Source: a virus (lineage: Duplodnaviria > Caudoviricetes). Taken from it: a stretch of 64,000 nucleotides of DNA. Shown here piece after piece: positions 3,985-48,639 of this stretch (position 1 is the stretch's first letter; each line of letters opens with the position of its first letter). The notes beneath the pieces are model-generated. The model was not told where the DNA came from, did no database searches, and saw only the letters and a program-made list of their open reading frames with translations. Location of the stretch: the IMG/VR virus record IMGVR_UViG_3300020492_000001, positions 12,305 through 76,304 of that record, one strand, 5' to 3'. The translations under genes were made by a program, and so were the position numbers.

Positions 3985-5448
3985 TTATTTTTCTATTATT
4001 ACTGTAAAATAAACAGCCTTTGTTCCTAGACTTGCAAACACAGCACCAGCAGCAGTTGCTCTAAAATCAACGATATTGCTACCTTCCCAAACAAAACACC
4101 TAGCAAAAATATTTGTACCGTTATTTATTGCAAACCTACAATCATCTAATTGCACTCCATTATTTGTAAAAGGAAGTACAACTTGCGTATTTGAACTATT
4201 AGATATTCCTGTTACTTGTCCGTTTACAATATAATATGAACCCATATCTACAGATTTTATTTTATTAATTGAATAAGAAAGCCAACCAATTATTGTACAA
4301 CTTGCCGTTATATCTACCCAGCTATTACTTTGCTTGTTTTTCCACAAACTTGTAGCACTATCGTATGTTAATACATCGTTGTTTGCTACTCCATTTATTA
4401 AAACATTATGAAGTTCATTTAATTCATAACCATTGTCAACTTTAACAAATATAGTTCCTTGAGTTATATGAGCATGTACTACATAACCAATAATAACTAT
4501 ATGATTTGGTGCAATAGGTTTTATATTTGTAATATTACCAGCAGTTGTTGGACTTAAATATAAAATATCTCCATCCGCCCAAGTTTCGCTTTGTAAAGAA
4601 CCAGTTGTATTAATACCTCTTACTAATCCGCTTGTAGTAATAAATCCTTCTTGATTATTCGCTATTGTTTCCGTTACTAAACCAATTGTTTCAGCACTTA
4701 ATAAATCACTTGTCGCTAAAGCTAAATCTACTTTTAATCTTTGACCTTGCGCCCCTGTAACTCGTACAGCTTGATAGTTAGATTCTAATAAAGTAATGTT
4801 TGTTGCTGTTTTATTAACTACTCTTGATACTTGCTCTTGTCCGATTTGTAAAGTAACATTGCCACCTTTTAATTTTAAATCTAAAGTTCCATCTGTATCA
4901 TTCCAAACTACACTACCAGCAGTTGTTGGTATATTAGTTGGTGTATTATCAAACTCTAAATTACCTAATTGTATTCCAAACTCGCCTAAATTAACATCAC
5001 TTATTGCACCTACATAAGGTACATAACCATTAGCATCCATTTGCATGATGTTAGTCATGTTTAGATTAGGCAAATCAATAGCTTTAATTTTAAATATGTA
5101 GACTAATGCTACAGGATAAGCGGAAGGAGTACCACTAAGGACATAATTCCCACTAGTATCAAAACTAGTAACCGATACCACTGTACCACCAATGGTAAGC
5201 GGAGATTGTCCAGTTGGTTGCCCATTACTAAGTGTTTCAACAAGAGCATCGCCACCACTATAAAATTGGTCCAAAAGTATTGTCGCACCTGTGGGTTTCG
5301 TGATTGTGCCTGTTGCTGAACTGATGGTCTGGAAGTAAAGGATTTTATATTCATTATTTTCTAAATTTGTTACACGATTATTTAATGCAGGGTCTGCCCC
5401 AGCTTGACTGAATATTTTTCTAGGATTCTTTACTGCTGACTGTCCCAT
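3985..5448 (-). CDS. Tail fibre-like protein
   Basis: G/T/N-rich beta character; fibre-type segments ELNELHNVLINGVANNDVLTYDSATSLWKN. Confidence 0.65.
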   Translation of the reverse strand: MGQSAVKNPRKIFSQAGADPALNNRVTNLENNEYKILYFQTISSATGTITKPTGATILLDQFYSGGDALVETLSNGQPTGQSPLTIGGTVVSVTSFDTSGNYVLSGTPSAYPVALVYIFKIKAIDLPNLNMTNIMQMDANGYVPYVGAISDVNLGEFGIQLGNLEFDNTPTNIPTTAGSVVWNDTDGTLDLKLKGGNVTLQIGQEQVSRVVNKTATNITLLESNYQAVRVTGAQGQRLKVDLALATSDLLSAETIGLVTETIANNQEGFITTSGLVRGINTTGSLQSETWADGDILYLSPTTAGNITNIKPIAPNHIVIIGYVVHAHITQGTIFVKVDNGYELNELHNVLINGVANNDVLTYDSATSLWKNKQSNSWVDITASCTIIGWLSYSINKIKSVDMGSYYIVNGQVTGISNSSNTQVVLPFTNNGVQLDDCRFAINNGTNIFARCFVWEGSNIVDFRATAAGAVFASLGTKAVYFTVIIEK

Positions 5449-37812: not shown

Positions 37813-39378
37813 ATGATAAAGAACTTGCGTGGATACCAACAAGAAGTAATATGTAAAGTAGAAGATGCTTTAAAATCAGGAGTTAGCCGCCAGCTTGTTT
37901 GTATGGCAACTGGTTTAGGTAAAACTTTTACGGCAGTCAAGATAGTTGAGAAGCTACAATTCAAGCGTATTTTATGGATTACACATAACGAGGAGTTAAT
38001 CCAACAATCTGGACTTGCATTCCTTAAAGATAAGTTTGACGATACATTTGCTAAACACGTTCAAGATATAGGCTTCTTAGATTGGGTTGATAAACATAAC
38101 TGTAATTTCGGAAACCATACAGGAACGTTTAAAATGGGTGCAATTAAAGCCTCTGTATTTAAGATTAATGCAGAAGTTACTATGGCATCAGCACAAACTC
38201 TCTACAGAAGACTAGATAAGATTCCATTTGATTATTTCGATTGCATCGTAGTTGATGAATGTCACCTCTTCATGGCCAAGACGTTCCTACAGCCATTAGA
38301 ATACTTTAAGCCTAAATTACTACTTGGACTTACCGCCACGCCGCATCGTATGGACGGCTTATCTCTAGGCAACATATTTGAGCAAATAACCTATGAGTAT
38401 AATATAGGACAAGGTATTAAAGATGGTTACTTATGTGAGTTAGACGGAATAAGAGTACAAACTAATGTGTCATTAGATAACGTAAGAACAACCGCAGGAG
38501 AACTTAATCAGAAGGATTTAGCAGATGAAGTAAATATTCCTAGACGTAACCAATTAATTATAGATAAATACAAGGAATACGCTGATGGAAGACAAGGAAT
38601 ATTCTTTTGTGTAGACATTCAACACGCTTGCGATTTAGCGGATATGTTTATTGAAAATGGTATTAGCTGTAAACCTATTGTTGGAGATGAAGAATTTACT
38701 CCTGATAGAGTTGGTACTATACAAGATTTTAAAGATAGAAAGATACAAGTCCTTACTAATTGCCAGATACTTACTACTGGTTTTGATGAGCCAAACGTAG
38801 GGGTAATCGGTAATGCTTCTCCAACAAAGTCTTTAACTAAGTATATGCAGTCTGTTGGGCGCGGATCAAGATTAAAAGATAAAGAGTTCGTAGATAGATT
38901 TGGACAAAACTGTGTAATCCTAGACTTTGTAGATTCAAGTTCAAGACATAAGTTAATCAATACATGGACACTAGATCAAGGAAAGAACTTAGAGGATAGA
39001 GTATTCTTAACTCAGGATAAGAGAGACTATATATTAGAAGAAAGAGCTAGAAAGTCTGCTAAAGTTGAAAATTTAACTGATAAGGATGAGAGAATAAAGC
39101 TAATTGAATTACCTCCTGCTAAACAATTTGGATGGAAGAAAATGCAAGAAGCGGCAACATCCGCACAATTAAAATACATATCTGATTTAGGACACGATAT
39201 TCAAAACAATACTTACACTAAACAGCAATGCGCGGATATTATATCTTTAGAGCCTTGTAATAAAAAAGAGATAGAATATTTGAAATCTAAAGGATATGAC
39301 ACTACATTTGCCACAAAGGGCCAATACGGCACAATTTACTACGAATTAGAAATGAAAAACAAATGGAAAAAGAAGTAG
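37813..39378 (+). CDS. Superfamily 2 (DExH) helicase
   Basis: LRGYQ Q-motif, ATGLGKT, DECH, TAT, TGFDEP, QSVGRGSR. Confidence 0.9.
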   Translation: MIKNLRGYQQEVICKVEDALKSGVSRQLVCMATGLGKTFTAVKIVEKLQFKRILWITHNEELIQQSGLAFLKDKFDDTFAKHVQDIGFLDWVDKHNCNFGNHTGTFKMGAIKASVFKINAEVTMASAQTLYRRLDKIPFDYFDCIVVDECHLFMAKTFLQPLEYFKPKLLLGLTATPHRMDGLSLGNIFEQITYEYNIGQGIKDGYLCELDGIRVQTNVSLDNVRTTAGELNQKDLADEVNIPRRNQLIIDKYKEYADGRQGIFFCVDIQHACDLADMFIENGISCKPIVGDEEFTPDRVGTIQDFKDRKIQVLTNCQILTTGFDEPNVGVIGNASPTKSLTKYMQSVGRGSRLKDKEFVDRFGQNCVILDFVDSSSRHKLINTWTLDQGKNLEDRVFLTQDKRDYILEERARKSAKVENLTDKDERIKLIELPPAKQFGWKKMQEAATSAQLKYISDLGHDIQNNTYTKQQCADIISLEPCNKKEIEYLKSKGYDTTFATKGQYGTIYYELEMKNKWKKK

Positions 39379-39517
39379 ATAAAACAAAAGTATGTTATAT
39401 CTGTAAGAAACCTACAGAGTATAGCCTACACCCAGTATTTACTTCTGACATGGTAATTATCAAAGGAATAAAACAATGCTTTAAATGCCTATCAAATAAC
39501 TATAAAAACAAATAAAT

Positions 39518-39874
39518 ATGAAAAACAATCCAACAACAGGAAAACGCAAAGAGGCGGATGCTCCAACAAACTTAGTAATAGAAGGTTCTATTGACTATAA
39601 ACTAACTATATCTAAAAAAGGATATGAATTAGAAACTAAGAATAGTATTGATAATGATTTAGCTGCCATGTTACACGCAAGAGGAATAATAGAAATGTAT
39701 AAAAAAGACTCTGAGATGACTAAAGCTCATCCTATTTATAAAATGATGAAGCCTGACAAAAGAAAAGAATTTAATAGTAAGTACGATAAACTAATTCACG
39801 CATCTTATATTATAGAGAAATTATCTGGAAAATTATTAGAAAATGCTATGATAGCTATTAACAAAAAAGATTAA
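39518..39874 (+). CDS. Hypothetical protein
   Basis: 118-aa ORF. Confidence 0.6.
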   Translation: MKNNPTTGKRKEADAPTNLVIEGSIDYKLTISKKGYELETKNSIDNDLAAMLHARGIIEMYKKDSEMTKAHPIYKMMKPDKRKEFNSKYDKLIHASYIIEKLSGKLLENAMIAINKKD

Positions 39875-39878
39875 TGCC

Positions 39879-40124
39879 ATGAAACATAAACGCGAACTTA
39901 AAATTTATAACGGAAGAGTAAAAGTATATGTAGATGGATACGTGATGTTTTCTTTTAATCAAATTGACTTCTTAGGTTATTATGCTTATAAGGACGATAC
40001 TTCACTCTACGGATTAGATATTTATTTATTAAGAGAAAAAGCGGGTGCGTCCACGATGGAAATTTACTTTAAAACTAAAGAGAATTGGCTCGAAATGCTT
40101 AAATTACTTGATACTCATTTGTAA
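39879..40124 (+). CDS. Hypothetical protein
   Basis: 81-aa ORF. Confidence 0.6.
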   Translation: MKHKRELKIYNGRVKVYVDGYVMFSFNQIDFLGYYAYKDDTSLYGLDIYLLREKAGASTMEIYFKTKENWLEMLKLLDTHL

Positions 40125-40180
40125 TTTAATTATTTTGAAAATAAACGTAACCTTTTAAATTTATATACGTTTAAATAGAT

Positions 40181-40310
40181 AGATAACGTTGAGTATATAT
40201 GTTCGGTTGCGATTAATAGCACGAACTTATCAATTTAAACAAAACTTAATAGAATGAACAAAATTTCAAATAAACACGAAACCGCAACTGACATATATAC
40301 TGTGTTATGT
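40181..40310. repeat. attC-like site E1
   Basis: GATAAC-GTTG-AGTATATATG...CATATATACT-GT-GTTATGT. Confidence 0.75.
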
Positions 40311-40706
40311 GCTGCCTTTTGTGGTGCTGGTAAAACATTTATTTGTGATAAAACAGATATAAAGGCAGTTGAAGTTGAATATTGGAAGTATAAAGAAAAA
40401 GGACTGTTCAAAGAATATATTGAAGATGTTAAGAAGTATATCGGTAAGGTAGATTACATCTTTATTGCAACAGAGCCAGAAGGAATGAAATTGCTACATG
40501 ATGAAGGATTTGAAATAACTCTTGTTTACCCAAAAAATGAACTCCGAAACGAATATTTGGATAGATACATTGAGCGTGATAGTCCTTATGATTTTATTGG
40601 AACATTTATGAAGCATTGGCATATATGGATTGATGAACTTAAAGAGCAAAAATATTGTAAGCATATTATTTTGGATTCAGGACAATACTTGCAGAATGTT
40701 CTTTAA
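40254..40706 (+). CDS. Cassette 1: small P-loop NTPase/kinase-like protein
   Basis: Walker A-like AFCGAGKT; starts inside E1. Confidence 0.65.
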   Translation: MNKISNKHETATDIYTVLCAAFCGAGKTFICDKTDIKAVEVEYWKYKEKGLFKEYIEDVKKYIGKVDYIFIATEPEGMKLLHDEGFEITLVYPKNELRNEYLDRYIERDSPYDFIGTFMKHWHIWIDELKEQKYCKHIILDSGQYLQNVL

Positions 40707-40710
40707 GGTT

Positions 40711-40807
40711 GCACATAACGTTTTGCGGCTTGGCGAAGGCTGCCTAACGGATGCTCAATTTTCGCACAAATTTCAATGGCAGCTTTTGCCAAACCGCTGT
40801 TACCTGC
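40711..40807. repeat. attC-like site E2
   Basis: GCACATAAC-GTTTT-GCGGCTTGGCGAAGGCTGCC...GGCAGCTTTTGCCAAACCGC-T-GTTACCTGC. Confidence 0.85.
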
Positions 40808-41114
40808 TGGGCGGTTTATCAGTAGGAACTTAAAAATAATATTCAAAATGTTGCCAAAAGAAAAAGCACAGGAACTTGTAAGCAAGTTTAAAGATTACGT
40901 TCACGGATATGTTGGTAGCTCAATGCTTACCAACCATGAATACCCTGAACAAATTTTATCACAAGCAAAGAAAGTAGCAATTATTGTTGCAGATGAAATG
41001 CTCCATCAATACACTACTTTAAATGCTGATTTAATAAACGCATTGTATCGAACAGAAAAGGTTGTCTTTTGGCAACAGGTCAAAATAGAAATTGATTATG
41101 TGTCGGAATTGTAG
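40776..41114 (+). CDS. Cassette 2: hypothetical protein (PKEKAxEL family)
   Basis: MLPKEKAQELVSKF resembles 33452 and 34619. Confidence 0.6.
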   Translation: MAAFAKPLLPAGRFISRNLKIIFKMLPKEKAQELVSKFKDYVHGYVGSSMLTNHEYPEQILSQAKKVAIIVADEMLHQYTTLNADLINALYRTEKVVFWQQVKIEIDYVSEL

Positions 41115-41118
41115 CCTT

Positions 41119-41255
41119 GCAGGTAACGTTTCGCAGCTATATTTAGTTGCGATTTTGAAAAACAAAAGTTTAATTAATAAATAAAAGTAAATATGAAAAA
41201 CAAAGTTGAAAATAAGAGCAATAATAAGCAATTGAATATACTAGCTGTTAGGCGT
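41119..41255. repeat. attC-like site E3
   Basis: GCAGGTAAC-GTTTC-GCAGCTATATTTAGTTGC...GCAATTGAATATACTAGC-T-GTTAGGCGT. Confidence 0.8.
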
Positions 41256-41636
41256 AGTTTTTTTAACTTCAAGTATAAATGGCCATTAAGAAAATACTGG
41301 CTTAATTGGTTTAAAAGAGATGTTAAGAGATGGTATTATTCTAAAATACACGGTTTTAAAATGGGTGTATTTGATGGAACTATGATTCCAACTACTGGTA
41401 AAGGTAAATATGTATCTGTTTATTCTAAAGGTGAAATAATCCAAATTAAACATGAAAGCGGTTATGAACATTTAGAGTATGATGAAATTAGAATAATACC
41501 ATGTCAAGAAAATCACGGTGTAATGGTTGAAAGATTTAAAACAGGAAAAATGTGCGATAGAAACCACATGGATTTAAAGCAATTTAATAAAGGTATAATT
41601 TTCGCTTCCAATGTTGAACAGTTGGCTGGTCGTTAA
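41193..41636 (+). CDS. Cassette 3: hypothetical protein
   Basis: Starts in the E3 loop. Confidence 0.6.
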   Translation: MKNKVENKSNNKQLNILAVRRSFFNFKYKWPLRKYWLNWFKRDVKRWYYSKIHGFKMGVFDGTMIPTTGKGKYVSVYSKGEIIQIKHESGYEHLEYDEIRIIPCQENHGVMVERFKTGKMCDRNHMDLKQFNKGIIFASNVEQLAGR

Positions 41637-41640
41637 AATT

Positions 41641-41780
41641 ACGCCTAACGTTTTGCAACTTGCATTAGTGCCTTGCAAAAATACGAGTAGCTTCGGATTA
41701 AAAAAGAACACAACAAATAAAAAACAAACATTAAATTAACAACCAAGCCAAAGGCATTGATGCAAATTGCTGTTATGCGC
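41641..41780. repeat. attC-like site E4
   Basis: ACGCCTAAC-GTTTT-GCAACTTGCATTAGTGCCTT...AAGGCATTGATGCAAATTGC-T-GTTATGCGC. Confidence 0.85.
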
Positions 41781-41803
41781 TGGCAAAAAAAAAATTAAAA
41801 ATT

Positions 41804-42118
41804 ATGAGTACAATTATCGAAGACATTCAGTTTATGAAATCAATTTTGCCTGAACACTATGAGGTAAAAGAAAGTAAAAAATCAGGTTCAATTCATTGTA
41901 AATCAAGTATTGGATTAAGAAAAACGCCATACAATAGTTTTGATAGTTTTAAACGACCAATTATTGTTGATGATGCGGAAGATGAAGAACAATGGTTTTA
42001 TATCGTTGAAGCTATTAAAGCAAAGTTTGGCGAAAGGTTACAGGAAATTGACCATAACACTTGTTTTTGCCACGTCGATTTCACGATTTATCTGCGGTTT
42101 TCCGTTGCTTGCGCATAA
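41804..42118 (+). CDS. Cassette 4: hypothetical protein
   Basis: Stop TAA lies within GCGCATAAC. Confidence 0.6.
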   Translation: MSTIIEDIQFMKSILPEHYEVKESKKSGSIHCKSSIGLRKTPYNSFDSFKRPIIVDDAEDEEQWFYIVEAIKAKFGERLQEIDHNTCFCHVDFTIYLRFSVACA

Positions 42119-42247
42119 CGGTTTGCAGCTAAACGAGGTGGCTGATTAATACCTCGAAACTTAATTAAAAGAACAAAATTATGAACACAGACAAAAGTTT
42201 ATTAGAAGAACAAAGCAAGCCATCTTTTTTAGGTGCTGTTATGTGCC
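42111..42247. repeat. attC-like site E5
   Basis: GCGCATAAC-GGTTT-GCAGCTAAACGAGGTGGCT...AGCCATCTTTTTTAGGTGC-T-GTTATGTGCC. Confidence 0.85.
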
Positions 42248-42387
42248 GTTTTTTATTCCAATACAGAAGTATGGATAAAGATTTAATGGTACATATTGAA
42301 GCAAGTAGTTTAAATTATGCAATGGTGAAATTTGCAACTCACTACCATTTAATTGATGAAGTGTATGAGATTGCAAGGGTGTCCTAA
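42181..42387 (+). CDS. Cassette 5: hypothetical protein
   Basis: Starts in the E5 loop. Confidence 0.55.
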   Translation: MNTDKSLLEEQSKPSFLGAVMCRFLFQYRSMDKDLMVHIEASSLNYAMVKFATHYHLIDEVYEIARVS

Positions 42388-42390
42388 AAT

Positions 42391-42545
42391 GGCACATAAC
42401 GGAAAATAATAAACGTATGTGTTGGTGTGTGGTTAAAGTGTTCCTCTGGCTAATGGACAAGTACCATAACCGTAAGTGCCTAAAACTTACCATACCACGC
42501 TACGGGCGGAACACGCCAACATTACGTTTATTTATTGTTAGCAAA
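42391..42545. repeat. attC-like site E6 (long structured loop; precedes an ORF-less cassette)
   Basis: GGCACATAAC-GGAA-AATAATAAACGTATGTGTTGG...CCAACATTACGTTTATTTATT-GTTAGCAAA. Confidence 0.75.
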
Positions 42546-42556
42546 TCGTTTTAATG

Positions 42557-42638
42557 TTTGCTAACGGCATCAAGCTAAAAGCTGACCGCCTAATAAGCGG
42601 TTAGTATATGGCGGTTTGATTTTAGGTTGTGTTATGTT
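42557..42638. repeat. attC-like site E7
   Basis: TTTGCTAAC-GGCAT-CAAGCTAAAAGCTGACCGCC...GGCGGTTTGATTTTAGGTTG-T-GTTATGTT. Confidence 0.8.
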
Positions 42639-42699
42639 GGTGCGATGGCAAGTGTGTGAGGCAGTTTTATTTTATTAATTTTTAAAAAAGCGGAGGAAA

Positions 42700-42912
42700 A
42701 TGGAAAACTTATACTTTAGAAAAAAACTTATATGGGCTGAAATTGAGCGATTAAAACACGAACTTGAAAAGAATCAAGAGTTTATTAACTTATTTCAAAA
42801 ACAAAACAATGATTTGCTAAAACAGATTGAAAAGCAATTTAAAGAAATAGAAATTGTTGGAGAGCAATTACTAAAAATAGAAACAGAACAATTAATAAAA
42901 CATGATTTATGA
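42700..42912 (+). CDS. Cassette 7 gene a: coiled-coil hypothetical protein
   Basis: 70-aa ORF. Confidence 0.55.
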   Translation: MENLYFRKKLIWAEIERLKHELEKNQEFINLFQKQNNDLLKQIEKQFKEIEIVGEQLLKIETEQLIKHDL

Positions 42913-43178
42913 CAACAGAAAAACCACTTAGAAAAACAGGCAGTTATATAGTAATTGCCAAACGTTGGAGCAGCGAACAATCACATAATTACATTGTAGA
43001 TTTATGCTCAGGAATTGATTCAGCTAAAGAAATTGCAGAAAATGAAATGCGAGAGCGTGGCGGTAAATATGGGATACAGATAATTGCTTTTAGAGAAGAT
43101 AACAACGAGCAAGAAATTGTTTTTGAAATTGAAAGCCCATATAAGAATAAGGTAAATATACCTACTGATAACGCTTAG
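42909..43178 (+). CDS. Cassette 7 gene b: hypothetical protein
   Basis: ATGA overlap with gene a. Confidence 0.55.
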   Translation: MTTEKPLRKTGSYIVIAKRWSSEQSHNYIVDLCSGIDSAKEIAENEMRERGGKYGIQIIAFREDNNEQEIVFEIESPYKNKVNIPTDNA

Positions 43179-43214
43179 GTGCGTAGGCTTTTAAAAATTA
43201 ATAAAATAAAATTG

Positions 43215-43303
43215 AACATAACGGTTTGCAGCTAATAGAAGGCTGTAATTACACAAAAATATATGAGCTGTTAACTCAGCTTTTTATTAGGTGCTGTTAG
43301 TAC
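43215..43303. repeat. attC-like site E8
   Basis: AACATAAC-GGTTT-GCAGCTAATAGAAGGCTG...CAGCTTTTTATTAGGTGC-T-GTTAGTAC. Confidence 0.85.
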
Positions 43304-43351
43304 CAGTAGCCAAATTAAAATTTAAAAACAATAACAATTAAAAACTAAAAT

Positions 43352-43630
43352 ATGAAAAACAACAAAGAACAATCGTACCAATACGCTGCAATTATACAAG
43401 GCGCAATAGCAGAAATGTTAAATGAAGATAGTGATAGCGATTATAGAATATCGTTAAGCGATTTTGATGATGAGGATAAAGCAACTGCATTTTTGCACGC
43501 ATTAGCTAATATAGTGCCTTGTAATATCTATAAAAAATTAACTCAAGATGATACTGACATTTTAGGTTTTAATCATATCGCTAATAGATTAGTATATCAA
43601 TTTACAAAGCAGGACGAAGCCGAAGATTAA
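43352..43630 (+). CDS. Cassette 8: hypothetical protein
   Basis: 92-aa ORF between E8 and E9. Confidence 0.6.
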   Translation: MKNNKEQSYQYAAIIQGAIAEMLNEDSDSDYRISLSDFDDEDKATAFLHALANIVPCNIYKKLTQDDTDILGFNHIANRLVYQFTKQDEAED

Positions 43631-43646
43631 ACATCAAAGGCTATTA

Positions 43647-43780
43647 GTACTAACGGTTGGTGCTTTATTTAGTGCCGACTTAACAGATAAAATTTAATTG
43701 AAACACAAATGAAAAATAAAAAGACAAAAGTAAAATCGAAGCCGAAAACTAAGGCATTGAATAAAGCACTTGTTAGCAGT
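43647..43780. repeat. attC-like site E9
   Basis: GTACTAAC-GGTT-GGTGCTTTATTTAGTGCC...GGCATTGAATAAAGCACT-T-GTTAGCAGT. Confidence 0.85.
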
Positions 43781-43966
43781 AGTGCCTATGTGCGTTACCG
43801 CTACTCAGGTAAATCTTCTTCAATATTTTGGGATATAGTAAATTCATTACCAAAAGATGCAGACAGACAAGAGATGTATGCTTTAGGATGCGTTTTGCAA
43901 AATGTTGAAGAAGATGTGTTGAGAACACTAAGGAATATTAACAGCAAGTATGTGCGTGGCAAATAG
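43709..43966 (+). CDS. Cassette 9: hypothetical protein
   Basis: Starts in the E9 loop. Confidence 0.6.
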   Translation: MKNKKTKVKSKPKTKALNKALVSSSAYVRYRYSGKSSSIFWDIVNSLPKDADRQEMYALGCVLQNVEEDVLRTLRNINSKYVRGK

Positions 43967-43971
43967 GCATT

Positions 43972-44110
43972 ACTGCTAACGTTCTGGCGGTTGGCGTTCG
44001 TTGCCGACTTTGGAACACTAAACTTTCACTTTTAAAATAAATTTGATATGGAACACAAAACTTCAATAAACCACGAAAACGGCAATGACGCCAACCGCTT
44101 GTTACCAGCA
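43972..44110. repeat. attC-like site E10
   Basis: ACTGCTAAC-GTTCT-GGCGGTTGGCGTTCGTTGCCG...CGGCAATGACGCCAACCGCT-T-GTTACCAGCA. Confidence 0.85.
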
Positions 44111-44275
44111 GTTAGTTGGTATAAATCATTATCGCTCAACCAAAAGATGGCGCTCAAAGAAGTATCAGCATTAATTTGTGGAATGAAATGGGAAGATTTC
44201 AATATTCTATTCAGTCCACGAGAAAGACTTGAGATATTGCACAACAAATTAATATTGGAAGGTTTCCTTGTCTAA
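44048..44275 (+). CDS. Cassette 10: hypothetical protein
   Basis: Starts in the E10 loop. Confidence 0.55.
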   Translation: MEHKTSINHENGNDANRLLPAVSWYKSLSLNQKMALKEVSALICGMKWEDFNILFSPRERLEILHNKLILEGFLV

Positions 44276-44276
44276 T

Positions 44277-44379
44277 TGCTGGTAACGTTTTGCAGCTAAT
44301 AGAAGTGGCTGCTTGTAAGAACTTCTGAATTATAAACAAATGCTTGTAGCAGCCATTTTTGTTAGGTGCTGTTATAAGC
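44277..44379. repeat. attC-like site E11
   Basis: TGCTGGTAAC-GTTTT-GCAGCTAATAGAAGTGGCTGCT...AGCAGCCATTTTTGTTAGGTGC-T-GTTATAAGC. Confidence 0.85.
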
Positions 44380-44396
44380 TGTAAAAATTACGACTT

Positions 44397-44603
44397 ATGA
44401 AAACGTATTTATCATTTTACGGAGATTGTTATTACCCAAGCGGTGGTATGGGTGATTTTATTGGAGATTACGACACCAAAGAAGAAGCGATACAAGCTAT
44501 TGAAGAAGCTCACAAAAAGAACCGCCCTGATGATTTAGAATGGGAGTGGGCTTGGGCTAATGTTTGGAGTGCACATGACCGAATCGAAGTGTACACTAAG
44601 TAA
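44397..44603 (+). CDS. Cassette 11: small phage-type protein (YYPxGGxxDF family)
   Basis: YLSF...YYPSGGMGDFIGDYDTKEEA motif familiar from phage hypotheticals. Confidence 0.6.
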   Translation: MKTYLSFYGDCYYPSGGMGDFIGDYDTKEEAIQAIEEAHKKNRPDDLEWEWAWANVWSAHDRIEVYTK

Positions 44604-44611
44604 TTTTTATT

Positions 44612-44679
44612 GCTTATAACGGATGAAGCCTTACCCAGCGAAGGTGTCGACCGAGTTGGGTAAGGGTTGGGTTATAAGC
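44612..44679. repeat. attC-like site E12 (shortest, 68 bp)
   Basis: GCTTATAAC-GGAT-GAAGCCTTACCCAGC...GTTGGGTAAGGGTTG-G-GTTATAAGC. Confidence 0.8.
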
Positions 44680-44728
44680 TGACGGTTACTAATGTTACTA
44701 TGAAAAACAATTTAAAAAAAATAACGAT

Positions 44729-44914
44729 ATGATTGAAATAGAAGAATTATTTGGTGGAAATGATGCCGAAGAACACAATGTTTTATACACTATTATTAAA
44801 AATAGAGGATATAAATATTTTGAAGAAACACCCAAAACAAGTATGACTTGCGGATTAATTAAAGATTTACACGAACTAAATTACGAGATTGTAAAAAAAA
44901 ACGTTTCAAAGTAG
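44729..44914 (+). CDS. Cassette 12: hypothetical protein
   Basis: 61-aa ORF between E12 and E13. Confidence 0.55.
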   Translation: MIEIEELFGGNDAEEHNVLYTIIKNRGYKYFEETPKTSMTCGLIKDLHELNYEIVKKNVSK

Positions 44915-44923
44915 CTACCGTTT

Positions 44924-45051
44924 GCTTATAACGGTTCGCAGATAAACGCAGTTTTATGAAACAGAAATTAGATATAGAAAAAATTAGAGAGTTGGAAACC
45001 ATAGCTAAAGAATTAGATGCTGAAAAATTGCGTTTATCTGCTGTTAGCAAA
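44924..45051. repeat. attC-like site E13
   Basis: GCTTATAAC-GGTTC-GCAGATAAACGCAGTTT...AAATTGCGTTTATCTGC-T-GTTAGCAAA. Confidence 0.85.
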
Positions 45052-45153
45052 TCGGTTTGCGACCACTCTTGGATGAACACAGGATTATCAGTACAAGGCA
45101 AAAGTTTGATGGTATGCACCAAATGTAGGGAAACCAAGCAAACTGTTTGCTAA
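44956..45153 (+). CDS. Cassette 13: small putative Zn-ribbon protein
   Basis: CDHSW...CTKC; starts in the E13 loop and stops within TTTGCTAAC. Confidence 0.55.
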   Translation: MKQKLDIEKIRELETIAKELDAEKLRLSAVSKSVCDHSWMNTGLSVQGKSLMVCTKCRETKQTVC

Positions 45154-45200
45154 CTATTATATGTAAACTACCCTTTAAACTAACAGCAAAATCAATACTC
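45146..45200 (-). other. attI-like half-site
   Basis: Core GTTAGCAAA on the minus strand with no palindromic partner arm; second GTTAG about 30 bp away; lies just 5' of the recombinase start. Confidence 0.55.
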
Positions 45201-45221
45201 TTTAATTAAAAAATCGAAAAT

Positions 45222-46055
45222 ATGAATTTAGAAAAGTGGATAAATAGATATAAAACTGATTGTGCTTTAAAGTATAATAGTGATGCAACCAAAGAAAATT
45301 ACACTTCTGGAGTTAAATCTTTTCTTATAAAATTCGATAAATATTCTGAGCCTAAAGAAATACCGACTCAGGAAATTAAAGAGTATTTATTGACTTTTAA
45401 AACGATAAATACACGAAAGCATAACCTTTGCTCTATTAAATCTTTCTATAAATTAACTGTAGGTATGCCAAGCAAGATTGATAAGATTCCTTATCCTAAG
45501 TCTGATAAGAAACTACCTATCGTTCTTTCTGTAAACGAAATTCAAAGAATGTTTAATGTCTGCCAAAATAAGAAGCATAAAGCAATTTTAGCTTTACTGT
45601 ACTCTTGTGGATTACGTGTATCGGAACTTATAAATTTGAAATGGAAAGATATTGATAGAAGTAGAATGGTAATTAATATAATCCAAGCTAAGGGAAATAA
45701 GGATAGGCAAGTCCCATTATCTCAAGATTTGATTAATGTATTAGAAAGTTACTGGAATGAGTACAAGTCCGCCGAGTATGTTTTTAATGGACAAAAATCA
45801 CTGCAATACACAGATAGAAGTGTAGGAGAAGTAATTAAACAGTTGGCAGATAAAGCAGGAATATGTAATAAAAGGGTTTACACACACCTTATGCGTCATT
45901 GCAGCTTTACGCACATGGTTGAGAACGGAACTGATATTTCGCTTATCCAAAGACTCGCTGGACATTCTAGTGTAAAAACGACTAATATCTACCTCCATAT
46001 CAGCCATAATCACATAAGTAAAATCCAAAGTCCACTAAGTAATATTAAATTATAA
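45222..46055 (+). CDS. Tyrosine recombinase, integron-integrase-like (lacks IntI-specific insertion)
   Basis: SAM-like N-terminal domain; KLPIVLS; complete catalytic set GLRVSE, KGNKDR, THLMRH, LAGH, TNIY. Confidence 0.9.
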   Translation: MNLEKWINRYKTDCALKYNSDATKENYTSGVKSFLIKFDKYSEPKEIPTQEIKEYLLTFKTINTRKHNLCSIKSFYKLTVGMPSKIDKIPYPKSDKKLPIVLSVNEIQRMFNVCQNKKHKAILALLYSCGLRVSELINLKWKDIDRSRMVINIIQAKGNKDRQVPLSQDLINVLESYWNEYKSAEYVFNGQKSLQYTDRSVGEVIKQLADKAGICNKRVYTHLMRHCSFTHMVENGTDISLIQRLAGHSSVKTTNIYLHISHNHISKIQSPLSNIKL

Positions 46056-46075
46056 CTCAAACTTGAATTAAAAAC

Positions 46076-46450
46076 ATGGTAAAACTAGAAGTAATAGAAG
46101 AAGGAGATTTATTCCTATATAATTTCACTTTGGCAGACGGATCAAAGAAGCAGCAGAAATACACTAAAGCTACACATGAAGCTATTAAAAGTTATTTTAG
46201 TAAGCCTAAGAAGGAGAAAAAGAAGCCTGCAACCGCGCCGACATTAGAAGAAGTAAAGGAGTATTTTAAGAAAGAAGGCTACCAAGAGGATGCTGCTATC
46301 AGATTCCATAAGTATTACGAGGCACTAGATTGGTATGATAATCAAGGTCGCCCTGTATTAAGATGGAAAGGAAAGGCTATCGCAACTTGGTTTAAGCCTG
46401 AAATGAAATTAAAAGTAGAAGTTAAAAATACATCATCATTTTTTCAATAA
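46076..46450 (+). CDS. Replication initiator/helicase-loader-like protein
   Basis: PTLEEVKEYF...FHKYYEALDW...G..V.RWK, a C-terminal domain type of phage replication initiators; directly before dnaB. Confidence 0.55.
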   Translation: MVKLEVIEEGDLFLYNFTLADGSKKQQKYTKATHEAIKSYFSKPKKEKKKPATAPTLEEVKEYFKKEGYQEDAAIRFHKYYEALDWYDNQGRPVLRWKGKAIATWFKPEMKLKVEVKNTSSFFQ

Positions 46451-46453
46451 CAC

Positions 46454-47821
46454 ATGGACTTAAAACAAAAAGAAAGAGAAGTACTTAATCTATTTGCGGA
46501 TAATGCTGATTTATTTGTTAATTGTGAACACTTGGTATTTGAAAACTTATGGTCCACAAACTTTAATAAGGTTAAATTCAAAATTATAACTTATAATCAT
46601 AGTAAAGGTAAGAAATCTGACATTTACCTGCTCTCTAATATGCTTATTAAGGCAGGTTGTAACAAAAAAGAAATCGGACTTGAAGTGTCTGAGCCTAATT
46701 ATAAAATCGCTAAGAATGTAGATGAGTATGTTAAGGATATTTTTGATGAGTATTCTAAGCGACAATTAACTCCATTACTTCAAAGAGTTCACTCAGAGCT
46801 TAGTTCTGAATTAGGAGATGTAAATAGCTGTTTAGAAGATTTAAAGACGGCAGTGAACGATATAGAGAGTATTAAGAATAATCTTTCTGTAGATAAAAAA
46901 GCAACTGATATTTTTGATCAAGCATTTAACGAGTTAATGGAAGCTCAGAATAATATAAAAGAGATAGTTGGTTATTCTACAGGGCTTAAAGATTTAGATA
47001 AGATGTGTGGTGGACTAAAACAAGAGGTTATTGTTATTGGAGCGCCTCCTGGTTCTGGTAAAAGTTCATTAATGGTAAACATCGTTGATAATGTAGCTAT
47101 CAAACAAGGTAAGCCTGTTGCTGTGTTTTCTTTAGAGATGCCTGCTACTCAATTAATGAAGAATATGTGGGCCAACAACCTTACAATTAATTCTTATGCG
47201 ATACGTGGCGGAGGATTGTTAGATGAAGATTTAGTAAAAGTAAAGAAGTACAAGCAAAGATTAAAAGATAATTTAGTCATAGATGACACCCCAGGAATTA
47301 CTTGGCAGTATATGGAGACTAGAATAAGAAAGATGCGTAAAACAGTTCCTATGAATGAATTGATAGTTGTTATGGTAGACTATATTCAAATTATGAGAAA
47401 TACTATTGAGGAGACAAGAGGGATTAGTAGTGAAGAGCAATTAGGATTAAGAAGTAACGGCTTAATGGAACTTTCTAAGAAATATAATCTTTGCATGATG
47501 GAATTATCTCAATTATCTAGGGAAGTTGGTAAGAGAGAGAATAAAAAGCCTGTAATGGGAGATTTAAAAGGCTCAGGAGCTATTGAAGCAAACGCTGTAC
47601 AGATATGGTTACTCTATAGGCCAGACTACTTTGAAACCGATCCTATGGAGAATGGAATGTCTTTAAAAGGACTCTGCGAGATTAATATGGCTAAGAATAG
47701 ATATGGAGAGACAGGTAGAAGATATGTAAGATTTGAAGGTAAATACTCAGCATTTAAAGATTTTGATATTAATGAAGTTAATGGATTAGTAACAGGAAGT
47801 AGCAATGGAGATGAGTTCTAA
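46454..47821 (+). CDS. dnaB: Replicative DnaB-like helicase
   Basis: GAPPGSGKS, FSLEM, VDYIQ, LSQLSR, DLKGSGAIE, KNRYG. Confidence 0.92.
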   Translation: MDLKQKEREVLNLFADNADLFVNCEHLVFENLWSTNFNKVKFKIITYNHSKGKKSDIYLLSNMLIKAGCNKKEIGLEVSEPNYKIAKNVDEYVKDIFDEYSKRQLTPLLQRVHSELSSELGDVNSCLEDLKTAVNDIESIKNNLSVDKKATDIFDQAFNELMEAQNNIKEIVGYSTGLKDLDKMCGGLKQEVIVIGAPPGSGKSSLMVNIVDNVAIKQGKPVAVFSLEMPATQLMKNMWANNLTINSYAIRGGGLLDEDLVKVKKYKQRLKDNLVIDDTPGITWQYMETRIRKMRKTVPMNELIVVMVDYIQIMRNTIEETRGISSEEQLGLRSNGLMELSKKYNLCMMELSQLSREVGKRENKKPVMGDLKGSGAIEANAVQIWLLYRPDYFETDPMENGMSLKGLCEINMAKNRYGETGRRYVRFEGKYSAFKDFDINEVNGLVTGSSNGDEF

Positions 47822-48224: not shown

Positions 48225-48300
48225 AAAATAATTTGAATAAATAATCAATTTTTTGTAACCTTATTTATTTTTATACGTTTAACTATTAAAATTACACATT

Positions 48301-48639
48301 ATGAATACATATTATAATCCTTGGTATTATTACAACGCTGGAGTTTTAGTTAAGAATAAGAAGCCTTGCATTCCAGGAAGTCAAGTTCACATATCTGATA
48401 TGGAAGGTTGCTTTACTGTATTGGATGTAAAAATAGATCACTTTGTGGTTATGAAGAAGAAAAAAGAAGTTAAGATACCTTGGGACAGATTTATCTGTTT
48501 AAAAGGAGACGGAACTAGCCTTGAGGCTCAAACTAAAAGAGGATTAAAAAGTGCTTTATATCAAATAGAATCCGCGCAATATAATTCAGCTATGTTAGCT
48601 AAAGAATTAACTAATTTTCTAAAATCACTAAAAAAATAA
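48301..48639 (+). CDS. Hypothetical protein
   Basis: After the promoter motif at 48255. Confidence 0.6.
   Translation: MNTYYNPWYYYNAGVLVKNKKPCIPGSQVHISDMEGCFTVLDVKIDHFVVMKKKKEVKIPWDRFICLKGDGTSLEAQTKRGLKSALYQIESAQYNSAMLAKELTNFLKSLKK

Follow-up and report, generated by a model that had tools for sequence, protein, structure and literature searches.

Can a cassette array in which every gene is reversed relative to its recombination site still be an integron-like platform? This question is raised by a 64,000-nt stretch of DNA from a freshwater, Flavobacterium-type phage (the window), which comprises bases 12305-76304 of IMG/VR record IMGVR_UViG_3300020492_000001, a complete virus of 76,304 bp with direct terminal repeats. 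In the interval that separates a helicase gene (37813-39378) from that of a DnaB-type helicase (46454-47821), the window contains small plus-strand open reading frames (ORFs) set apart by imperfect palindromes, and this array is followed by an attI-like site and the gene of a tyrosine recombinase. Its layout, its strain variants, and a comparison with Flavobacterium chromosomes indicate, at a probability of roughly 0.8, that the region is a complete phage-borne integron-like platform of a Bacteroidota type, in which the geometry of sites, attI, and recombinase is classical and the cargo is flipped. The platform is framed by three features.

40147-40187, plus strand: distal flank, conserved and with ATAAC at its end, that bounds the variable array on the left.
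45151-45221, plus strand: attI-like site, a lone TAAC (45151-45154) followed by the conserved non-palindromic sequence TATTATATGTAAAC...
45222-46055, plus strand: tyrosine recombinase of 277 aa, Xer/IntI-like, matching PF00589 (Phage_integrase, 9.9e-39) and PF13495 (SAM-like).

Thirteen hairpin sites, E1 to E13, were mapped over 40184-45046. Read on the plus strand, each opens with x'TAAC, an invariant G, and approximately four bases that do not pair; two complementary arms (13-22 nt) then enclose a loop of 15-100 nt, and GTTAx closes the site after 0-2 further bases. A cassette consists of a hairpin and the gene downstream of it and ends at the next TAAC; there are 12 coding cassettes and one lacking an ORF, and the 13 ORFs all lie on the plus strand. 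The stop codon of every ORF is located 0-41 nt upstream of the next TAAC, and the start codon is within the hairpin in 7 of the 12 coding cassettes. In addition, the sequence following GTTA is the reverse complement of the sequence preceding the TAAC of the next site over 8-18 nt, compared with a mean of 5.2 nt for mismatched pairs, and such complementary ends mark units able to close into circles. This complementarity was dropped as a locator of the crossover, since it is compatible with a crossover at either end of the hairpin.

In order to compare the polarity of these sites with that of sites in host chromosomes, related repeats of Flavobacterium were analyzed. In some Flavobacterium chromosomes, copies of TAACGKTTTGCRGC are grouped on a single strand (97 matches in 44 of 151 genomes, up to 16 per genome), and stretches from four genomes proved to be long arrays with a site of about 125-160 nt after each ORF. 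A covariance model was trained on 25 host sites only, taken from the strand antisense to the host genes. On the plus strand, this model gave 47.6-86.2 bits for ten window sites (E values from 5e-8 down to 2e-16) and about 20 bits for E6 and E7, whereas the minus strand of the same sites reached at most 13.2 bits. The host-built model detected 12 of the 13 window sites, which are attC-like in their imperfect palindromes, their AAC...GTT cores, and a structure that is kept while the sequence varies; ten of them belong to the site family TAACGKTTTGCRGC...GTTA, a family with a site length of about 125-130 nt. Across the whole 76-kb genome, no match was obtained beyond the mapped sites. An extra palindrome, TAAC...GTTA at 48256-48451, which had been proposed by a heuristic palindrome finder, had no support from the model and was discarded as a chance occurrence. 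The whole phage hairpins are 70-77% identical to host sites. In the four Flavobacterium chromosomes, all 111 matches were antisense to the host ORFs, with the sites after the ORFs, an arrangement that the phage array does not share. The sites are listed below with their bit scores in the host-built model (filters off).

40184-40307, plus strand: E1, the complete distal site, by fold and model (50.4 bits on the plus strand, 10.2 on the minus strand), with the start of the ORF at 40254 in its loop.
40716-40802, plus strand: E2, by fold and model (55.0 bits on the plus strand).
41124-41250, plus strand: E3, 69.3 bits on the plus strand.
41646-41775, plus strand: E4, 67.8 bits on the plus strand.
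42116-42241, plus strand: E5, head of cassette 5 (42116-42400), 71.6 bits on the plus strand and 9.3 on the minus strand.
42397-42540, plus strand: E6, head of the ORF-less cassette 6 (42397-42565), by fold and model (20.7 bits).
42562-42634, plus strand: E7, by fold and model (19.8 bits).
43219-43299, plus strand: E8, 47.6 bits on the plus strand.
43651-43775, plus strand: E9, head of cassette 9 (43651-43980), 56.3 bits on the plus strand and 10.7 on the minus strand.
43977-44104, plus strand: E10, head of cassette 10, 86.2 bits on the plus strand and 13.2 on the minus strand.
44283-44374, plus strand: E11, head of cassette 11 (44283-44620), 56.1 bits.
44617-44674, plus strand: E12, a short site (58 nt) missed by the covariance model; fold of -16.8 kcal/mol on the plus strand versus -12.0 on the minus strand.
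44929-45046, plus strand: E13, head of the last cassette (44929-45154), 54.7 bits on the plus strand and 11.5 on the minus strand; the ORF at 44956-45153 starts in its loop.

The host arrays end beside the recombinase gene in a lone TAAC followed by TTGTTTATATGT. In one host array (G049), the layout is classical, with the recombinase gene diverging from the cassettes, and in two others (G152 and G115) this gene is co-oriented with them and located upstream, as in the "reverse integron" arrangement (PMC6557892). Relative to the polarity of the sites, the phage has the order of G049, namely sites, attI, and a recombinase gene reading away, and only the cargo is flipped. In both phage and host sites, TAACG is invariant (13 of 13 and 25 of 25, respectively) and is followed by the unpaired spacer, on that strand only. 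In classical attC sites, AAC and GTT are the sole conserved bases, and the R' box of the bottom strand has a conserved G directly after its AAC (PMC2727003, PMC8946536). Because of the invariant TAACG and the one-strand spacer, the gene-sense strand of the phage sites appears to be the counterpart of the classical attC bottom strand. In classical integrons, strand choice serves the expression of the captured gene from the platform (PMC2727003, PMC8946536). An earlier sequence-only reading of the window had described a classical framework on the minus strand with inverted cargo, and this holds for the site polarity, attI, and recombinase, which are arranged as in G049, and for the 13 of 13 plus-strand ORFs. 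It had also stated that Bacteroidota chromosomal repeats have the opposite orientation relative to their genes; the 111 Flavobacterium matches agree with that statement, and host and phage orientations are opposite, not the same.

Two large arrays were observed in the chromosome of G152 (L065-L069). The first, which has a recombinase of 348 aa, extends from about 1.825 Mb to the left, past the stretch that was examined (1.808-1.828 Mb). The second occupies approximately 55 kb (2.289-2.345 Mb, in a stretch of 2.28-2.36 Mb), lies in the opposite orientation, and has no recombinase gene nearby. Together with the stretches from the three other genomes, these arrays contain the 111 site matches in 172 kb. 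At 16725-16812 of L069, tandem units of about 11 nt (CATACTCCGTA / CATACTCCATA) are located between the host attI and the 3' end of the recombinase gene.

The boundaries of the mobile unit were deduced from strain variants. A search with the recombinase yielded 31 IMG/VR loci, eight of which encode a 100% identical protein or a fragment of it. The left flank is common to the window and these identical-recombinase variants only until 40190-40193, which corresponds to the ATAAC(G) opening E1, and the right flank only from 45148-45151, which corresponds to the lone TAAC. The same ATAAC is followed by three different first hairpins among the variants, and at the other end the same attI TAAC plus TATTATATGTA is joined to four different cassette ends. 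Four window cassettes recur in L003/L005 in the order 11, 10, 5, x, 9, three of them at 100% identity and one at 97.7%. Of the matching stretches (42116-42402, 43650-43980, 43969-44314, and 44283-44621), three span from one 5' TAAC to the next 5' TAAC; that of cassette 10 (97.7% in L003) begins 8 nt before its TAAC and overruns the next by 28 nt into a similar hairpin. None of the four breaks at the right-hand GTTA. The unit of cassette 5 (42116-42402) is 100% identical in L003/L005 at another position of the array, that of cassette 9 (43650-43980) recurs at 100% identity immediately next to attI in L003/L005/L006, and that of cassette 11 (44283-44621) is 100% identical in L003. Furthermore, L007 and L002 differ by an 804-nt hairpin-plus-ORF unit bounded by TAACG, an indel that is equally explicable by excision. 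A Logan contig joins 42396 to 42562, representing the precise loss of cassette 6, with a shorter flank of only 24 nt.

Since the variants break at the 5' TAAC and at the lone TAAC, and units extend from TAAC to TAAC, the mobile unit is a hairpin together with its downstream gene. The moved units, the 804-nt indel, and the TAAC boundaries show that the cassettes move as discrete core-bounded units, as expected of an integron. The same alignments place the predicted crossover within or at the edge of the plus-strand 5' TAAC. A crossover at the plus-strand GTT would sever seven cassettes from their start codons, because these lie inside the hairpin. The sequence-only reading had assigned the crossover to the minus-strand G|TT, and the variants map it there, at the plus-strand 5' TAAC, and not at the plus-strand G|TT.

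An 11-nt sequence, TCGTTTTAATG, was noticed in three settings. At 42537-42565, nothing else separates the matched ends GTTAGCAAA...TTTGCTAAC of cassette 6; in L002 (about 4515-4547), it is the sole content between GTTATGGCA...TGCCATAAC, the ends that close the last cassette against attI; and in L007 (about 128-170), a minimal hairpin of 46 nt has it as the loop. The sequence may serve as a default loop or as filler in cassettes that have been emptied. Loopless versions of E2 (40738-40784) and the matched ends of cassette 11 abutted without an ORF (44392-44599) were found in lake metagenome contigs at a depth far above that of the phage itself; other elements in that community thus seem to be circulating these site modules.

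The content of the array was examined using the following ORFs.

40254-40706, 40776-41114, 41193-41636, 41804-42118, and 42181-42387, plus strand: the first five cargo ORFs.
42700-42912, 42909-43178, 43352-43630, and 43709-43966, plus strand: the next four cargo ORFs.
44048-44275, 44397-44603, 44729-44914, and 44956-45153, plus strand: the last four cargo ORFs.

Three of the 13 cargo proteins match phage-only PHROG families of unknown function, and a Pfam search of all 13 gave no match above the cut-off. In a comparison with 301 sampled Flavobacterium genomes, no gene body was held in common, and the hairpins alone matched. The homology of the hairpins to host sites would also fit a passive attC-like cluster that was derived from a host, captured once, inverted by chance, and is now inactive. 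This explanation is extremely improbable: variants with an identical recombinase and identical flanks carry different and reordered cassettes, the layout is kept across recombinases that are 57-100% identical, and the cargo points to phage-only families without a counterpart among the sampled host genomes.

Downstream of E13 is a 105-nt stretch whose 3' end is the half-site TTTGCTAAC (45146-45154), with its reverse complement GTTAGCAAA at 45043-45051. A second CTAAC is located at 45180-45184 within non-palindromic DNA. The half-site, the second CTAAC, and the complete distal site E1 had all been noted by the sequence-only reading and were found at the coordinates given here. The lone TAAC is 67 nt from the ATG of the recombinase gene and on the same strand, and no hairpin was detected 3' of this last TAAC with the covariance model (filters off). 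The 9-mer TTTGCTAAC is not significant on its own, as its four copies in the window were a number reached by 6 of 100 shuffles; all four copies are matched ends of cassettes 6 and 13. The half-site is nevertheless beyond chance, because strain-variant homology starts at its TAAC and because TAAC-N3-5-TATATGT(A) is present about 55-70 nt before the start codon in 33 of 33 related loci. The DNA 5' of the attI TAAC is unrelated among these loci. An attI adjoining the recombinase gene, one of the defining features of integrons, is accordingly seen both in the homology break of four variant arrays and in the motif of the 33 loci. In an ancestral attI without cassettes, the conserved distal flank (40147-40187) would have formed the other half.

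A GC-richer phage lineage (L079, L080, and L086), whose recombinase is 59% identical, has an identical 22-nt attI, TAACTATTATATGTAAACTACC, and the last unit of its array likewise consists of an "empty" pair of matched ends. A metagenome scan with a 37-nt attI pattern gave no match, and a scan with an 18-nt pattern gave 23 matches, at least half of them expected by chance and none from the present strain.

The layout was then followed across the phage family. In 33 loci with recombinases 56-100% identical, the heuristic palindrome finder detected 78 sites of the phage polarity upstream of the recombinase gene versus one of the opposite polarity, and no site of the phage polarity downstream of it. 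When the covariance model was applied to 41 loci that have the attI motif or encode a related recombinase, all 71 matches were upstream of the recombinase gene and on its strand (L079 is stored reversed). By either method, 31 of the 33 recombinase loci with upstream DNA carry sites there, and ORF cover on the recombinase strand was 0.7-0.9 in most related arrays. At the level of sequence, the hairpin-headed layout was thus shown to hold across the phage family and to be the opposite of that in the hosts.

The catalytic residues R, K, H, R, H, and Y of the recombinase are unchanged across 16 relatives. Its best NCBIfam match is NF040815 ("XerA / integron integrase") at 198 bits, and the host recombinase scores 225.5 bits. 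TIGR02249 (integron integrase) has a cut-off of 265 bits, and the protein fell short of it at 164.5, its match being split into two stretches of which the first stops at profile position 180; approximately 39 profile positions are unmatchable by length, which is about the size of the IntI insertion. The score with NF011946 was 86 versus a cut-off of 435. The 277-aa protein lacks the additional domain specific to IntI, and by this defining feature the recombinase is, as judged from these profiles, not an IntI, though the element is built like an integron. It falls in an NF040815-like clade without the IntI insertion, that of the Bacteroidota Xer-like system. It is 40% identical to the array-side recombinase of the host, which has the same gap and a 70-aa N-terminal extension.

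Of the window sites, 9 of 10 folded more stably on the sense strand than on its complement, and so did 46 of 55 sites from relatives. The mean difference was about 1.7-2.4 kcal/mol, whereas the host sites showed no folding-strand bias (17 versus 21). The bias in the phage could result from selection of the recombinogenic strand, from an added role as an RNA 5' leader, or from base composition. As it does not discriminate between selection at the DNA level and at the RNA level, it was dropped as a test of the two. Both this bias and the start codons in the loops would suit hairpins that act as RNA-level 5' leaders in translation or processing, in which case the recombinase would be an unrelated integrase or Xer-type resolvase and the variation ordinary phage mosaicism. 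We consider this very unlikely, because the sites and the recombinase co-occur in a fixed geometry in 31 of 33 loci, and the enzyme has a relative beside the host arrays with a similar attI. Moreover, the host site family is antisense to mRNA, so that an RNA function is not its primary role, the breakpoints are exact at the 4-nt core, and a search of 39500-46200 against Rfam gave no match. The hairpins may have a secondary RNA role besides recombination.

The working of the integron-like platform can be outlined by analogy. The recombinase would bind folded plus-strand sites and cleave within TAAC, recombination between sites would excise circles composed of a hairpin and its gene, and the circles would be reinserted at attI beside the recombinase gene. 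A functional attI should remain next to the recombinase gene after each insertion, because the conserved accessory sequence is on the recombinase side of the crossover, as in classical attI. The genes point towards attI and read on into the recombinase gene, and read-through from phage genes further upstream probably accounts for transcription of the array and continues into that gene. The folding of attC is favored on the lagging-strand template (PMC8946536). The co-directional gene block around the array extends over approximately 28-55 kb, and GC skew is positive across it; the skew tracks the coding strand, so the contributions of replication and transcription are inseparable, and it fits the plus strand being the lagging-strand template without proving it.

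The sequence-only reading had further placed a promoter at 40147, and this part did not find support: a sigma-70-type scan, which does not cover Bacteroidota promoters, detected none there and gave fewer promoter matches than shuffled sequences, with terminators about equal. A 56-nt block at 40147-40200 is 82% identical to 7453-7508 of L008, where it precedes an ORF and not a hairpin and where the surrounding intergenic DNA is unalignable. Insertion next to the recombinase gene is inferred from the conserved attI, and a reversed gradient of expression along the array is speculation.

Several points weigh against the integron-like platform. The recombinase lacks the IntI insertion, which classical work deems necessary for the recognition of folded attC, and the use of single-stranded sites by this enzyme would be an analogy. 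No recombination product was observed as such, the evidence coming from contigs and not from circles or raw reads. The distal cassette varies among strain variants to the same extent as the proximal one, which gives no sign of insertion confined to attI. Logan contigs break at the right GTTA of E2 and E8 (at 40802 in two runs, and at 43301), and in one of them the body of cassette 12 is preceded by a different hairpin. These breaks and the swapped body mean that hairpins and bodies are separable, by another pathway or by homologous exchange. These contigs are short and come from mixed lake communities, and several matches have flanks of about 20 nt and may belong to other organisms; they were used as caveats only.

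The same contigs favor sites that are not strictly polar, with crossovers at TAAC and GTTA on either strand, or homologous exchange within the hairpin arms. Heads and bodies would then assort independently, and the geometry on the attI side would carry little weight. Hairpin-only similarity of 85-91% over 97-127 nt across distant phage lineages is in line with this, as is the similarity of 70-77% to host sites without bodies in common. On the other hand, both boundaries of the array are of the TAAC type, the moved units with 100% identity extend from TAAC to TAAC, and many of the Logan matches have flanks of less than 30 nt in a mixed community. A homogeneous site family, like the VCR repeats in Vibrio, would likewise be similar in its hairpins only, and the occurrence of such similarity among lineages and hosts suggests that the phage sites form such a family, prone to homologous exchange. 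We therefore regard a lack of strict polarity as unlikely, albeit the most serious of the alternatives.

The platform shares many features with classical integrons, for example those of class 1 and the sedentary chromosomal integrons of Vibrio. A tyrosine recombinase gene adjoins a lone insertion site, and discrete cassettes are bounded by imperfect palindromes that conserve only AAC, GTT, and structure. There is a conserved G after the bottom-strand AAC, the cassette ends are matched, and cassettes are reordered among strains. By site polarity, the order is sites, attI, and a recombinase gene pointing away. Unlike in classical integrons, the site precedes the gene instead of following it, the genes are on the strand that resembles the bottom strand, and they read towards attI and the recombinase gene without a Pc-type arrangement. 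Also different are the R-box of about 9 bp with TAAC/GTTA, the recombinase without the IntI insertion, and the carrier, a phage with direct terminal repeats.

The closest resemblance in sites is to the chromosomal arrays of Bacteroidota, as represented by the four Flavobacterium genomes: the site family is the same, attI is similar (TAAC and then T..TATATGT), and the recombinases, 40% identical, both lack the IntI insertion and have NF040815 as the best match. These arrays differ in that their sites are after the genes and antisense to them (111 of 111), in sharing no cargo with the phage, and in their recombinases of 345-364 aa, which have an N-terminal extension and are encoded divergently from or upstream of the cassettes. 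In the "reverse" or "unusual" integrons of Treponema denticola, Chlorobium, and others (PMC6557892), the recombinase gene and the cassettes are transcribed in the same direction, as in the phage. However, intI is upstream in these integrons, it alone is flipped, and the gene-then-attC order is kept, whereas in the phage the genes are flipped and the recombinase gene is downstream. Cassette arrays in phage genomes are also known as phage integrons and CALINs (PMC9892861). Those phage integrons have canonical IntI and attC detected with IntegronFinder and are mostly from phages of Proteobacteria; the text of that paper makes no mention of Flavobacterium or Bacteroidota, and it uses "orientation" twice, about plasmid vectors, without discussing the orientation of sites versus genes. 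IntegronFinder 2.0 found almost no integrons in Bacteroidetes (PMC9024848). We found no description in the literature of the Bacteroidota Xer-like system or of arrays with all cargo inverted. With the present locus, the integron-like systems of Bacteroidota, so far unrecognised, gain a platform that is complete in recombinase, attI, and array, together with a direct, model-based comparison of phage and host polarity.

As to why the cargo is flipped, we tentatively propose, with more doubt than confidence, that the flip is adaptive, in that phage and Flavobacterium host share the recombination chemistry and keep two cassette pools of opposite gene polarity. If so, a cassette captured across the two pools, from host to phage or from phage to host, would be antisense and silent, and phages would be insulated from the defence and toxin cassettes of the host and hosts from phage cargo. 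The recombinogenic strand would be the non-template strand and maybe the lagging-strand template, making phage arrays hyper-dynamic, and each site would become a 5' leader holding the start codon of its gene. A phage family that keeps the recombination geometry and reverses every gene implies that strand choice and the logic of expression can be uncoupled. It offers a natural system in which to ask what sets the orientation of cassettes: transcription, the replication strand, or isolation from the host pool. It also suggests that lytic-type phages may trade small accessory genes as cassettes.

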